Origin: a virus
Virus record (IMG/VR): IMGVR_UViG_3300031857_000053
Coordinates: 43,267 to 107,266 of that record
Direction: 5' to 3' (one strand)
DNA length: 64,000 nucleotides
Shown here: positions 58,143-62,404 of the stretch, one piece after another
How the letters are laid out: the number at the start of each line of letters is the position of its first letter
Numbering within the stretch: the stretch's first letter is position 1
The notes under the pieces: generated by a model
Database searches by the model: none
Seen by the model: the letters and a program-made list of their open reading frames with translations, nothing else
Told to the model about the DNA's origin: nothing
Made by a program: the position numbers and the translations under genes

Positions 58143-58438
58143 TGCAAGGGGTTTTGGGAGCGCTCTATGATTTAGTAATAAACCTAAATTAAAAACTGAA
58201 TCATCTAACATTAGACTCCCAAATATTTTGAGGTGAACAAATATATAAATAAAAGAGGTAACAACTGGGCTACTCCCCAACTATTATTGCTCTTATCCTC
58301 ATGTGACTGAGATTCCGTAATAACTTAGGCCTTTATTACAGATATCGGGGGTGTGCCTAAACCCGAGTTTTTTATGGTTCAAGGGGAACAATTGTATAAT
58401 TTAGTATTTTCATAGTTTACTTATTTATCCATTTAAAG

Positions 58439-58464
58439 AAAAAAAGGGCTACTTACATAGCCCT
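58439..58464 (-). terminator. Intrinsic terminator
   Basis: AGGGCTA-tgtaag-TAGCCCT followed by a U-tract. Confidence 0.7.
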
Positions 58465-58597
58465 AATTTCTCTATACTCCACCATTACATAAACCGTTGC
58501 CAAAGGCAAATATTTTAATTTTTTTTGTTGGTCGATGACTCGTGACTCTAAGAGGTAGGATGATAGTAAACCCGAATCTCGTTTACTTTTGGAGTGA

Positions 58598-58885
58598 TTA
58601 GATTAAGAGTTTACATTTTGGTACCTGAACAAATCCTCGTTGTATAAACTCAATAGCTTCTGATATAACTTTAGCATCTACTAGAGCTTGATACATACCC
58701 TCGTTTTCTGAGTAATCTTTTATTAGGACTTCATCATTATTGAGTGGTTCATCGGGGAAGTTGACTGTTGCTACTGCTACTGGTGAACTATCTTCAGCAT
58801 CTACTAGTTCAATAGCTGTTCTATTATTGAGTGGGTATTTCTTTATAAGGATTTCACACTCCCATTGATTGAAATTTATTTTCAT
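58598..58885 (-). CDS. DUF4313-like protein
   Basis: AIEL......P.A.ATVN......IKDYSENEG. Confidence 0.6.
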   Translation of the reverse strand: MKINFNQWECEILIKKYPLNNRTAIELVDAEDSSPVAVATVNFPDEPLNNDEVLIKDYSENEGMYQALVDAKVISEAIEFIQRGFVQVPKCKLLI

Positions 58886-58891
58886 ACTTAC

Positions 58892-59023
58892 TTAATTTAT
58901 TTGTAATGAGAATAATAGTATAGCATCTAGTCCTATGGTACCACGGATACCTGTTACTATGAGTCCGTGGTTAGAGGTTAGGTTTCCGTTATTGTCAACG
59001 AAGTAAAGAGAGTATTCTTTCAT
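58892..59023 (-). CDS. Small ORF (43 aa), absent from ORF track
   Basis: MKEYSLYFVDNNGNL...FSLQIN with an A-rich leader. Confidence 0.4.
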   Translation of the reverse strand: MKEYSLYFVDNNGNLTSNHGLIVTGIRGTIGLDAILLFSLQIN

Positions 59024-59040
59024 AGTTTTTATTTTAATTT

Positions 59041-59160
59041 TTTTACAATCCCCTTTGCACTCAGTTGTAACAAGGCTACATATTACCTTGCTTAGGGATT
59101 AATGTTTTCATTACAACTGCTCACCCTTGGGAAGTGAGTTGTGGTGCATTATTTAAAAAT
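59041..59160 (-). ncRNA. Twister-ribozyme-like RNA (type P1)
   Basis: UAA-UGCAC..CUCAC-UUCCCAAGG-GUGAG-CAGUUGUAA...UUACAACUG-A-GUGCA-AA-GGG. P2, P4, P5 and T1 can be drawn. P1 is weak and the catalytic G position is A. Confidence 0.55.
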
Positions 59161-59253
59161 AATTTATAGTGTGGTATTAGCTGCTCCATACCACACCAGA
59201 TCTCAGCACGCTAGATCTATTCAACGTATACATAGCAGTCCGTTGAGATATTA

Positions 59254-59442
59254 TTAGAAAGTTATATCTTCATTATACTCAAAGGTACCTGTTTTAATAT
59301 ACTCTAGTACTTCTTCTTTGTAGGCATATTCAATAACACTACCATCTTTAGATACAATAGTATATGTCATTTTATCCTCATGTTTTTCTTGTGGTATTAC
59401 TACATGTGTAATAATTAACCACATAAATTTAAGTTTAATCAT
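59254..59442 (-). CDS. Hypothetical protein
   Basis: 62-aa ORF. Confidence 0.5.
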   Translation of the reverse strand: MIKLKFMWLIITHVVIPQEKHEDKMTYTIVSKDGSVIEYAYKEEVLEYIKTGTFEYNEDITF

Positions 59443-59542
59443 TTAATATGTTATTATGGATTAGAGAAAAAAATAAAAAAAAACAGGAGCACACGTTATG
59501 TGGCCCCTGTTACGGTTAGAGGTATTAAAAATCCCTAAATCT

Positions 59543-59755
59543 TTAGATACCTAGATAGTTATCGTAATCATCTTCTATTTCCATTTCATGAATTTCTTCT
59601 TCTATGAAACATCTTTCTATATTGCTAATTGTTTTTTTGCTATTATTTTTTTTCTCCATTTTCTTACAGAAGTTAGCAAACTCGTCACCATGGATTGGTG
59701 ATCTTCTATAAATCATTACAAATTTGTCGAACATTTCTTTGTAGTTAGTTGTCAT
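59543..59755 (-). CDS. Hypothetical protein
   Basis: 70-aa ORF bounded by hairpins. Confidence 0.55.
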   Translation of the reverse strand: MTTNYKEMFDKFVMIYRRSPIHGDEFANFCKKMEKKNNSKKTISNIERCFIEEEIHEMEIEDDYDNYLGI

Positions 59756-59824
59756 AGGGTTGGTATTTGAGTTAGTATCCGAGGGAGATTTTCTCCCCCG
59801 GTATAAGTTATTATTTTGCTAGAC

Positions 59825-60274
59825 TTATTTTGTCATAGCTATATTTAGGAAAGGATTGTTTCTAAGATGCTCATTGATTTCATCTTCAGTAAGATAACCT
59901 TGTACATCATGTTCTCTAAAGTCATACATCTCAAAGGTTCTTACTCCATCTCCATAAAGACCTGAGCCACCGCCAACAATGCTTATTTGAACTTCACCAT
60001 CTTTGATATATACCCATTGGGTAGCACCAAGTATAACAGGATGAATTTTTTGTTTAAAGTCATCAGGGAATACGGGTGTTACGGTACCGTGAAGCAAACT
60101 TTGGATGTAGTATATCTCTAACTTGAGATCTGCTATAATATCTTCTGTAGTTTCAGGGTCATTATTTTCTTGACTAACGAGTGAGTTTATAGCATCAAGT
60201 AGGTGTTGTTCCATAGCTTCAAGATCTTTGCTTGTTGCATTTTGGTAAATTGGTACAAATTTTTCTAGGTTCAT
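59825..60274 (-). CDS. Hypothetical protein
   Basis: ISIVGGGSGLYGDG..TFEM..V.GYLT..EI motif. Likely start ATG 60274. Confidence 0.65.
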   Translation of the reverse strand: MNLEKFVPIYQNATSKDLEAMEQHLLDAINSLVSQENNDPETTEDIIADLKLEIYYIQSLLHGTVTPVFPDDFKQKIHPVILGATQWVYIKDGEVQISIVGGGSGLYGDGVRTFEMYDFREHDVQGYLTEDEINEHLRNNPFLNIAMTK

Positions 60275-60349
60275 AGGTTTATTATTTTGAGTGGGTTGGT
60301 TGACTTGTTTATTTAGAAGACCATTTAGGATATATCTACTATGATTCAA

Positions 60350-61200
60350 CATATCCTAGGTTGATCTCAATAACCTATAGGGTTCACTCGGATGGTGTAT
60401 ACCCTACTAACTTCATGCAGTGCACCGGTATTTCTACCACGCTTTGGGCTTAAGCAAGTTTATACTCCCCCAAAGGAGTTAAAAGGCTGAGTCTTGACCT
60501 TTTACACTACCATTCTCACCTTGTTACCAAGACTAGAACACACTAGGGATTACTCCATAGTAGGTAGCAGAATCAATGTTTATACTCGTTCCCGAGTTTT
60601 TCTTATTGAGTTTCATAGACTTTAATTTCTACCAAGTGAGGTGGATGCCTCTTCATTACCTCCCGGCAACTCCTTAGATATACTCTCTCTATCTATCAAC
60701 TTTCCTTTCGGTACTCGTTGACCTGCTATATTACACGCAGATAAGATTCTTTAGCTCAATAAGTCGACACGCTTTTTGATTATTAGTTTTTAGTTAATAA
60801 CAAATGGCACTTGACGGGTTGTGGTGTCAAGTAATAGCTCACTACCTTTTGGGTAATGCGTACTATGACAACCCGATGTTGACTACCAATCAACGGTATC
60901 TTAAGATCCTGTTACCAGATCTCGCAATACTGGATAACGCAGTTCCCCCTTTGGTGAGAGAGTTCCACACTTATCCTATGAGTTCTATCCTATTGTAGTT
61001 TCCTACTCAACAGCATATGCCCATGCTGTGGTTACTCAGAGATTTCTCCATCATAACCGTTACTCACTTGCCTACTAGGACACCGGGACCCAAAGAGTCT
61101 TCAGTGCAGGACATGTGTTTGTTAACACACTACCTTTTATACCGGTCACCCGGCTTATCCCCCACTGCCATAGGCGGCAATATCTTTAAAACACAATGAC
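60350..61200 (-). ncRNA. Candidate large structured ncRNA(s)
   Basis: ~850 nt without a credible ORF, GC-richer than flanks, many hairpins, one pseudoknot. Strand inferred from neighbours. Confidence 0.5.
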
Positions 61201-61222
61201 GTAAAGCATACCCCGCGGTTGC

Positions 61223-61393
61223 TTATATATAAAGATCTCTCATCCATAGAGGATACTGAGAGTCCCTAACCTCGCGGAGGTATTCAAGATAATTCTCTAT
61301 AACTTGTTCATCCGATTCTTCTAGATCAGAGAGAGAGTCAGACAACTCATCTCCCTTAACCTCTCCTAACTCTAAATTTTTAGTATCTTCCAT
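61223..61393 (-). CDS. Small acidic protein (56 aa), absent from ORF track
   Basis: MEDTKNLELGEVKGDELSDSLSDLEESDEQVIENYLEYLREVRDSQYPLWMRDLYI. Confidence 0.5.
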   Translation of the reverse strand: MEDTKNLELGEVKGDELSDSLSDLEESDEQVIENYLEYLREVRDSQYPLWMRDLYI

Positions 61394-61605
61394 ATTAATA
61401 GAGATATATAGTTAGTTACACAATAGTTTACTGGAAAAAAAAGTCTTTGACTCAAGTGATAATTAGTGAGGGTGTATTAAACCCTCTTTCATTCTCTCTT
61501 GATTATCAAAGACTTATCGCGTGTTATCTAAAGTAAGAGATTAACTTAATCACTTGGAACACCTAGATTGTTCTAGATGTTCCGTGATTATATGTTTATC
61601 TTCTA

Positions 61606-61983
61606 TTATAGGTCACCGATGTTGTTACCTGCAGGTGTTCCTGCTGCTTTAGCTGTTGACTTAGAGGTCATTAACTTATCAGCTGCTGACTTAGCTAAGT
61701 GATCACCTAAATTACCACCATACTGTTGAACTAGTGAAGCTTGTTTGTCAAATTCTGACATATCAGCAACAACTTTATTGTTATCAGTGATAATTAAGCT
61801 ACCTGACTCACCAACAAAACGTGTTGTGAACCAAAGAGTTTCACCTGTTTTAGGGTCTACTCGGTGGTAGCTACCTTGTACTCTTTCATAATCTGCTAAC
61901 TCTGTAGCATTTCCTGTTACTGTGTAAACGAATACAGTGTTTCCTTTTGCACTCTTGTAGGTGCGGGCATAATTGATTTCCAT
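61606..61983 (-). CDS. Early protein, paralog A
   Basis: Paralog of 62896-63282. Confidence 0.8.
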   Translation of the reverse strand: MEINYARTYKSAKGNTVFVYTVTGNATELADYERVQGSYHRVDPKTGETLWFTTRFVGESGSLIITDNNKVVADMSEFDKQASLVQQYGGNLGDHLAKSAADKLMTSKSTAKAAGTPAGNNIGDL

Positions 61984-62404
61984 GTTGATTTGGGTTTTTT
62001 GGGTTATTACTTTGATTTATTAATTGGTAGATATCCTGAATATCTAATAATTACTTTAAGGAAAAAAAGGGTACTTAACATCTTCCATAACTACCATAGC
62101 TTTCAAAGCTTTACGAGTCACATAGGGCCCATAGGGTTAGTAAGGTACAATGATCATTATGCTACAAGGTTACGAGTTGTATACCTTATATAATGATTTA
62201 GAGAAAAAAAGGGAAAATATAGCTTAAGCAGGACGGTATTCTTTATTTAGATAAAGAGTCCCATAGGGCAAAAGAGTGATTATGTAACCACATTGTTGGA
62301 TTCGTAAGCGAGTGAGGGTCTCCATATCTTCGGGTGTAGACCAAATAAGGGAGAGCTATCTTATTGAGTGTCAAACAAGGGAAGGTTTTTGGATTATTGG
62401 ATTC

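Follow-up and report, generated by a model that had tools for sequence, protein, structure and literature searches.

A Divergent GOLLD RNA Followed by a Probable Pistol Ribozyme in a Freshwater Phage Genome

This report concerns a segment of about 850 nucleotides (nt), positions 60350–61200 of a 64,000-nt window that forms the 3′ part of a 107,266-bp IMG/VR virus record (IMGVR_UViG_3300031857_000053, an estimated 91% complete genome that we designate G000). Very probably, the segment contains a divergent GOLLD gene on the minus strand (∼61184–60484) of a ∼107-kb freshwater phage, followed by a pistol ribozyme that would separate the GOLLD RNA from the message downstream. GOLLD RNAs are among the largest RNAs of bacteria and phages and form 14-mer cages made only of RNA. 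Both families have been described before, and a literature search turned up no paper linking the two. New here are the size and coherence of a GOLLD subgroup that lies below the Rfam threshold, a covariation test against the Rfam structure, a 5′ domain confined to one clade, RNA evidence restricted to GOLLD itself, an exchange of pistol and hammerhead before an invariant leader, and a tRNA-versus-ribozyme pattern in five related genomes.

The minus-strand RNA belongs to a divergent GOLLD subgroup

In a permissive scan of positions 60200–61500, the minus strand from 60876 to 60484 aligned to the entire Rfam GOLLD model (RF02032, positions 1–416) with a score of 67.1 bits and an E-value of 6.6e-17. 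A preliminary description, made from the letters of the window alone, had proposed a large, ornate minus-strand noncoding RNA (ncRNA) in the style of GOLLD and ROOL and had recommended a comparison with Rfam. That comparison identifies GOLLD by a full-length match and additionally aligns a pistol ribozyme, both below their Rfam gathering scores, which are reached by nothing anywhere in the window; ROOL, group I and group II introns, RNase P and tmRNA gave no covariance-model match at E ≤ 10 in the interval scanned. A search of the whole genome for RF02032 with the family's own filters returned no match, and its controls were silent too, so this route is insensitive and does not amount to evidence of absence.

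The general character of the stretch had been accurately perceived. An open reading frame (ORF) scan finds none longer than 64 amino acids (aa) on either strand of 60350–61200, the GC content is 0.40–0.465 as compared with ∼0.26–0.35 in the flanks, and the repeated motif GAGUA (GAGTA in the DNA) occurs eight times on the minus strand, at 60463, 60551, 60583, 60681, 60712, 61004, 61033 and 61061, as against ∼0.9 occurrences expected from its density across the window. Predicted folding is strong: the 707-nt minus-strand RNA from 61190 to 60484 has a folding energy of -214.7 kcal/mol (z -4.8 relative to dinucleotide shuffles), and none of 20 shuffles was as stable. Positions 60350–60483, however, lie outside the large fold and hold the pistol and a leader sequence described below.

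Relatives were sought with the 3′ terminus of the RNA as a pattern. A loose form, AAAGGUNNNNNCUCAGCCU, retrieved canonical GOLLDs together with sequences resembling this one, and with a specific form, AAAGGUCAANNCUCAGCCU, 28 viral, 112 metagenomic and 38 genomic stretches were obtained. Of the retrieved stretches, a 14-member profile recognized 77; 60 of these are distinct, and they have the 3′ terminus ..AAAGGUCAANNCUCAGCCU in common. All 24 relatives given to Rfam match GOLLD, with scores of 61–124 bits and E-values of 1e-13 to 1e-32; 23 are aligned end to end, and one (L182), cut by a contig end, is aligned over model positions 63–416. The acceptance limit used by Kretsch et al. in cmsearch for GOLLD was E < 1e-5 (PMC12286853). 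Ten canonical GOLLDs, with the terminus GGU(A/G)U(A/U)(A/U)UCUCAGCCU, score 165–328 bits, higher than every member scored here, and the terminal motif is common to both groups. Because the relatives fall entirely under the Rfam threshold and yet have this motif in common with the canonical family, we consider them a divergent GOLLD subgroup. Its members come from lake, wetland, rumen-like and other metagenomes and reside on phage genomes of ∼100–180 kb; some carriers are complete phage genomes of 123–130 kb, with a DNA polymerase 52–57% identical to that of the present phage. Given the full-length Rfam match, the relatives grading toward the canonical family, and the covariation and RNA contigs presented below, the minus-strand RNA of this stretch is a GOLLD-family RNA of the divergent subgroup.

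The whole RNA, ∼61184–60484 or ∼700 nt, consists of a variable 5′ domain, a linker and a conserved 3′ domain, as the GOLLD build (∼700–830 nt overall) demands. Its parts are as follows.

60877..61184, minus strand: GOLLD 5′ domain, clade-specific, ∼12 helices, with covariation; its 5′ end is uncertain, at ∼61165–61220.
60484..60876, minus strand: GOLLD conserved 3′ domain, matching RF02032, with covariation.
60814..60876, minus strand: first hairpin of the 3′ domain, with an outer stem (60876–60868 / 60822–60814) and an inner stem-loop with a CAAAA loop.
60770..60813, minus strand: A/U-rich unpaired linker in the 3′ domain, corresponding to unpaired model positions ∼66–135.

Conserved structure of the 3′ and 5′ domains

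To assess conservation of the fold, 33 distinct 3′ domains were aligned with MAFFT in a structure-blind manner (alignment A1). RNAalifold derives from this alignment a consensus of 53 pairs, 41 of which show compensatory double changes. For a covariation test, the Rfam GOLLD consensus structure was projected through the sequence of the present phage onto A1, with 500 shuffles and with partners slid by 1–3 columns as controls. Under the projected structure 65.9% of cells pair, compared with 54.2% in shuffles, and the covariation score is 0.385, compared with 0.172 in shuffles and 0.10–0.19 in the slid controls; for both measures, 0 of 500 shuffles reached the value observed. Pairing reaches 60–98% in helices 1, 2, 5, 6, 7, 11 and 12, where double changes are frequent; helix 13 shows no variation, and column counts for helices 8–10 are limited by alignment quality. 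The poor column counts of the 10-bp long-range helix are an alignment artifact, as a per-sequence duplex search finds a 9–12-bp duplex of widely differing sequence in 29 of the 33 domains. G-U pairs are compatible with the minus strand only. Absence of transcription, or conservation without covariation, would have spoken against the preliminary description; instead, the GOLLD helices covary in the alignment of 33 homologues, and RNA contigs cover the element.

Particular contacts proposed earlier must be read differently. The complementarity between ACAACCCG (60822–60815) and CGGGUUGU (60875–60868), taken for a pseudoknot, is real and conserved, but it is a nested pairing, the outer stem of the hairpin that opens the 3′ domain. 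This stem (helix 1) is 85% paired with compensatory changes at 7 of its 9 pairs, and the inner helix of the same hairpin shows 3–4 pair types per position. Hairpin 60809–60832, which the pseudoknot would need, occurs in A1 only in the present sequence and in that of L196. A closing helix between UGGCA and UGCCA also finds no support: UGGCA at 61170–61166 pairs locally with UGCC at 61179–61176, in a small hairpin that covaries in relatives (GGCC/GGUC and GGCU/AGUC), and UGCCA near 60805 lies in the unpaired linker. It had further been suggested that the stretch comprises two RNAs split at the A/U tract at 60780–60800. More than one RNA element is indeed present, with a boundary at ∼60480–60484 between GOLLD and pistol, but the A/U tract itself is the GOLLD linker; its length differs among the relatives in A1, and RNA contigs bridge it without a break. 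As a separate observation, two members of the subgroup harbor a tRNA gene within the linker part of their 3′ domain (L122:4651–4722 and L212:297–368); a tRNA inside that part has been described for some GOLLDs (PMC12286853).

The 5′ domain is homologous only to those of L196, L077/L098, L107/L202 and L074. Applied to four sequences of this domain, RNAalifold finds 80 pairs, 34 with compensatory changes. Restriction to a clade fits the published account of the GOLLD 5′ region as less conserved and variable (PMC12286853).

RNA abundance is confined to the GOLLD element

The genes that flank the element, and against which its RNA coverage can be compared, are the following.

61223..61393, minus strand: 56-aa ORF upstream of the RNA, whose stop codon is the 5′ bound of the RNA gene.
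59825..60352, minus strand: 175-aa ORF downstream, the first gene past the predicted cut, of unknown function, whose sole PHROGs match is weak and is to a family likewise without assigned function.

Parts of the stretch are present in 18 RNA-library runs. Contigs of four metatranscriptomes (freshwater and wetland, three studies) were placed on positions 59300–62300 of the window; such contigs cannot establish transcript ends or strand. They cover 60500–61170 at a depth of 13, 60520–61165 at a depth of 77, and 60491–61134 at a depth of 11, the last representing a relative (38 differences), and there are two smaller pieces besides. The flanking genes are uncovered except by a 32-nt scrap and by a contig of depth 2.1 (61149–61351) that runs from the 56-aa ORF into the RNA, in a run in which the RNA itself stands at depth 77. 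Contaminating DNA would be expected to cover the flanks as well, and the element therefore exists as an abundant RNA. Two contigs have an Illumina adapter directly attached, after 61170 and after 61165 respectively, which indicates that many fragments end there, near the 5′ end of the RNA; the covarying hairpin at 61179–61166 argues for an RNA start somewhat farther upstream than these junctions.

A pistol ribozyme and a conserved leader follow GOLLD

On the same strand, the GOLLD RNA is followed by two overlapping elements.

60420..60479, minus strand: pistol self-cleaving ribozyme by its match to RF02679 (model positions 1–68, 33.9 bits).
60374..60424, minus strand: conserved 51-nt leader from the predicted cut, UGCACUGCAUGAAGUU.GUAGGGUAUAC...ACCCUAUAGG, with the hairpin UAGGGU...ACCCUA.

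The pistol begins four bases past the last conserved GOLLD nucleotide. Its E-value is 3.8e-4 in a 1.3-kb search and 7.5e-6 genome-wide, and it is the only pistol in the genome. It shares with the Rfam family the P1 hairpin (ACUCC/GGAGU), a 6-bp pseudoknot between the loop (UUUGGG) and the P2–P3 linker (CCCAAA), the AUAAA linker, P2, P3 (UGGUA/UACCG), and the unpaired G-U at which the model places the scissile bond, predicted here as G60425^U60424; a GCGU block is also present. It differs from RF02679 in its short P3 (5 bp, GAAA loop), in the linker after AUAAA, which is one nt shorter than the Rfam consensus and 2 nt shorter than in relatives, and in its fixed location immediately downstream of a giant ncRNA. 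IMG/VR has no match to an exact pattern derived from this pistol. Relatives have pistols that score above the gathering score (52–65 bits), located 3′ of GOLLD by 5 nt in L017/L111, 167 nt in L117, 205 nt in L222 and 280 nt in L208. Relative to these, the present pistol has UUUGGG/CCCAAA in place of UUUGAG/CUCAAA in the pseudoknot and UGGUA/UACCG in place of UUGUA/UACAG in P3; such compensatory differences argue for selection on the fold.

The same 51-nt leader stands behind all pistols compared (five others) and behind a hammerhead in L196, the loci concerned being L017, L111, L117, L208/L013, L222/L106, L184 and L196. The inner stem of its hairpin changes from CAC/GUG to CGC/GCG, a compensatory exchange, and the element has no match in Rfam. 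An exact-pattern search of IMG/VR located the leader on GOLLD-bearing contigs only (5 of 5). The genes behind the leader are not homologous between two clades, and the leader thus does not travel with a particular gene.

Devices behind GOLLD in related phages

The closest relative is L196, whose neighboring ORFs are 75–90% identical; the ORF at the place equivalent to that of the 175-aa ORF has 75% identity to it. In this locus a hammerhead core (CUGACGAG, stem II, CGAAAC) replaces the pistol, and the leader behind it is identical. With 25.7 bits (E 0.0012, 191 nt searched), the Rfam Hammerhead_3 model matches in a register whose cut would fall within the terminal loop of GOLLD; an alternative register of RAGATH-1 type, at 13.8 bits, would cut GGGUC^UGCAC, exactly at the pistol-equivalent site. 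We tentatively favor the latter, because its short stem III is perfect and it would yield the same end as the pistol cut.

A twister-like element lies directly 3′ of GOLLD in four relatives: L109 (reverse complement of 2040–2200), L115 (reverse complement of 2880–2990), L117 (445–600) and L220 (reverse complement of 1640–1760). It is marked by UAAUGCAC..., a loop UUCCCAAGG and ...GUGCAGAGGG, with a long insertion in one stem, and could be a variant twister class; the name reflects our own reading together with covariation of P2, P4 and P3 across the four sequences. Rfam twister models match neither the elements of L109, L115 and L117 nor the present genome, twister-P1 and twister-P5 giving nothing genome-wide, and no Rfam family is found at E ≤ 1 in 58300–60430 of the window, including twister at 59041–59160. 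In L208/L013/L106 and L222/L145, a sequence 0–280 nt after GOLLD resembles the twister-like element of L117 with its UUCCCAAGG loop replaced by CUGACUGAUAGUCAG; standing before the distal pistol, it may be a decayed copy.

Other phages have a tRNA at this position. In the complete 129.8-kb phage genome that carries L077, the sole tRNA starts 9 nt after GOLLD (L077:3450–3519, equivalent to G004:C1:73870–73939); ARAGORN assigns it the unusual anticodon AUU (tRNA-Asn), and it may be a processing signal rather than a decoder. Among canonical GOLLDs, those of L061, L043 and L023 are followed by a tRNA 10–18 nt past their 3′ end. No tRNA genes are found in three pistol-bearing genomes (the present one and those of L017 and L013); for the present genome of 107,266 bp this was established with the Rfam tRNA model, with positive controls, and ARAGORN finds neither tRNA nor tmRNA in the window. 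The remaining relatives have terminator-like hairpins, or nothing recognizable, behind GOLLD; the terminator classifier applied to 3′ flanks is too loose in AT-rich DNA, and its counts are not used as evidence. In L140 and L205, the first 110 nt past GOLLD contain ends like tRNA acceptor and T arms with CCA (…GGUUCAAAUCC…CCACCA) that ARAGORN does not call as tRNA; these may be tRNA-like processing elements.

Discussion

By analogy with solved GOLLDs, the GOLLD RNA of this phage may assemble into a multimeric RNA cage. The pistol would cut G60425^U60424 and part the abundant structured RNA from the downstream message, leaving the GOLLD side with a 2′,3′-cyclic phosphate end and giving the message a 5′-OH start on the 51-nt hairpin leader ahead of the 175-aa ORF. 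Because the predicted cut lies 59 nt downstream of the GOLLD 3′ end, the ribozyme would stay on the GOLLD side unless trimmed later. It would occupy the slot that is held after many GOLLDs by a tRNA, which is a site for RNase P. In related phages the slot is variously taken by a tRNA, a terminator, a hammerhead or a twister-like element, which suggests that a defined break, not a particular device, is selected. Most economically, a break would be required between the abundant, compactly folded RNA and the message that follows, with tRNA/RNase P sites and ribozymes of several classes providing it interchangeably. We propose, tentatively and with somewhat less than even confidence, that the different ribozyme classes are protein-independent stand-ins for the tRNA/RNase P site, used by phages that have no tRNA genes, and that one cut both releases the cage-forming RNA and makes the 5′-OH leader.

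Several observations weigh against this picture. The GOLLD match, at 67.1 bits, is below the Rfam gathering score of 150 bits, and the pistol falls 0.6 bit short of its own (33.9 versus 34.5). The RNA contigs stop at 60491–60520, 7–36 nt inside the GOLLD 3′ end, leaving uncovered the pistol and indeed all of 60345–60490; this is at most a weak hint that the stable species excludes the pistol, since the gap in coverage indicates neither a cut nor continued attachment. The hammerhead of L196 has two possible registers, only one of which cuts at the pistol's site. About 40% of the relatives have no recognizable device after GOLLD, and the complementarity of tRNAs and ribozymes rests on five genomes. 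In three relatives, finally, the pistol lies 167–280 nt from GOLLD, yet it always stands directly before the leader. A position that is constant with respect to the leader and not to GOLLD suggests that the cut may matter as much for the downstream RNA, or more. The main alternative, in our judgment rather unlikely, is that pistol and leader form a module serving the downstream message, with a 5′-OH end and a protective or translational hairpin leader, as in phage operons punctuated by ribozymes, and that GOLLD is simply the preceding transcription unit, its own 3′ end being made otherwise. The invariance of the sequence 3′ of the cut over five pistols and one hammerhead, at distances of 5–280 nt from GOLLD, would be expected on such a view, as would the RNA contigs that end without the pistol. 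It accounts less well for the occurrence of the exact leader in IMG/VR only beside GOLLD, for the lack of homology between clades in the genes that follow, and for the tRNAs that occupy the same slot directly after GOLLD in other phages. As one cut makes both ends, a role in the downstream message and the release of GOLLD are not exclusive.

The near-threshold score, the linker 2 nt shorter than in relatives and the absence of RNA contigs over the ribozyme could also be explained if the pistol were a decayed, inactive copy, with the 3′ end of the RNA set by host nucleases or termination. We regard this as clearly unlikely: all conserved blocks are intact (P1, the 6-bp pseudoknot, AUAAA, GCGU and the GU at the cut), the differences from relatives are compensatory (GGG/CCC versus GAG/CUC in the pseudoknot and G-C versus U-A in P3), and the linker is just one nt short of the Rfam consensus. 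Far less probable still is that the large element is not a GOLLD homologue at all, being instead a separate class of large RNA with a chance or convergent likeness to GOLLD, or else a DNA element, for instance an origin of replication. A score far under the gathering score, the empty genome-level search with the family's filters and a 5′ domain with no relatives beyond its clade speak for this reading. They are outweighed by the end-to-end alignment to the model, by the series of scores that passes from the subgroup to the canonical members with a terminal motif common to both, by covariation in the helices of the GOLLD model with G-U pairs that fit one strand only, and by RNA contigs confined to the element; a variable 5′ region is, moreover, a known property of GOLLD (PMC12286853).

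Comparison with GOLLD as defined by RF02032 and by the cryo-EM structure of env-38 (Kretsch et al. 2025, PMC12286853) shows much in common: the RNA is phage-borne, ∼700–800 nt long and abundant; the same helices are found in its conserved 3′ region of ∼400 nt, as is the terminal ..CUCAGCCU hairpin; its linker is A-rich and variable, and its 5′ region shows little conservation. In contrast to canonical GOLLDs, the terminal loop is GGUCAANNCUCAGCC rather than GGUAUAAUCUCAGCC, the 5′ domain is ∼310 nt long as compared with ∼420 nt in env-38, and the score is 67 bits (61–124 in the subgroup) against a cut-off of 150. The genome also has no tRNA genes, and it carries a predicted self-cleaving ribozyme at the place often taken by a tRNA in canonical members. 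For the published kissing loops of GOLLD (L21a/b), no confident placement on this sequence was found. Ribozymes are absent from the GOLLD structural paper, which does refer to tRNAs and to ribosome binding (PMC12286853). In canonical GOLLDs flanked by a tRNA or a tRNA array, as here, a processing signal lies ∼5–20 nt past the GOLLD 3′ end; in the present phage this signal would be a protein-independent ribozyme, whose predicted cut is 59 nt downstream. ROOL likewise is large and ornate, forms cages, is associated with phages and occurs near tRNAs; it has no sequence or structure match here.

A further parallel is offered by the clusters of self-cleaving ribozymes that Perreault et al. reportedly found in 2011 between genes of phage and prophage operons. 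In both cases ribozymes lie between phage transcription units, and differing classes (pistol, hammerhead and twister-like) are found at equivalent sites. Here, in contrast to those clusters, the upstream unit is a giant structured ncRNA and not a protein gene, and ribozymes of two classes seem to produce one and the same 5′ end downstream.

The Rfam threshold thus misses a sizeable GOLLD subgroup of 60 distinct sequences, and the position right after GOLLD appears to be kept for an RNA-cutting signal of freely exchanged type, whether tRNA, pistol, hammerhead or twister-like element. If ribozymes and tRNAs are interchangeable in this way, the pistol would have a defined natural task and the function of GOLLD would depend on a processed 3′ end. 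Short transcripts would allow direct tests of how GOLLD matures at its 3′ end and of a biological use for pistol, and a compact GOLLD of ∼700 nt with a different 5′ domain provides material for structural comparison.

Genomic setting

A scan of the minus strand upstream of the RNA for sigma-70 promoters and terminators found nothing beyond chance, and the region has no blastn match among GenBank phages. When the flanking 175-aa protein was used to find relatives, a single locus (L001) was recovered, which is without GOLLD. PHROGs searches with the neighboring small ORFs and with the giant ORFs returned unknown functions or no match, except for DNA polymerase. The phage DNA polymerase is ∼35% identical to that of the crAss-like Cellulophaga phage phi14:2, among other matches; this makes a crAss-like label for the phage tentatively plausible.

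In many GOLLD-bearing contigs, divergent and canonical alike, a phage-encoded tmRNA gene lies no more than a few kb from GOLLD. They are found in L107 (5449–5859) and L115 (1690–2039), and in the canonical loci L059, L043, L016, L023 and L062.

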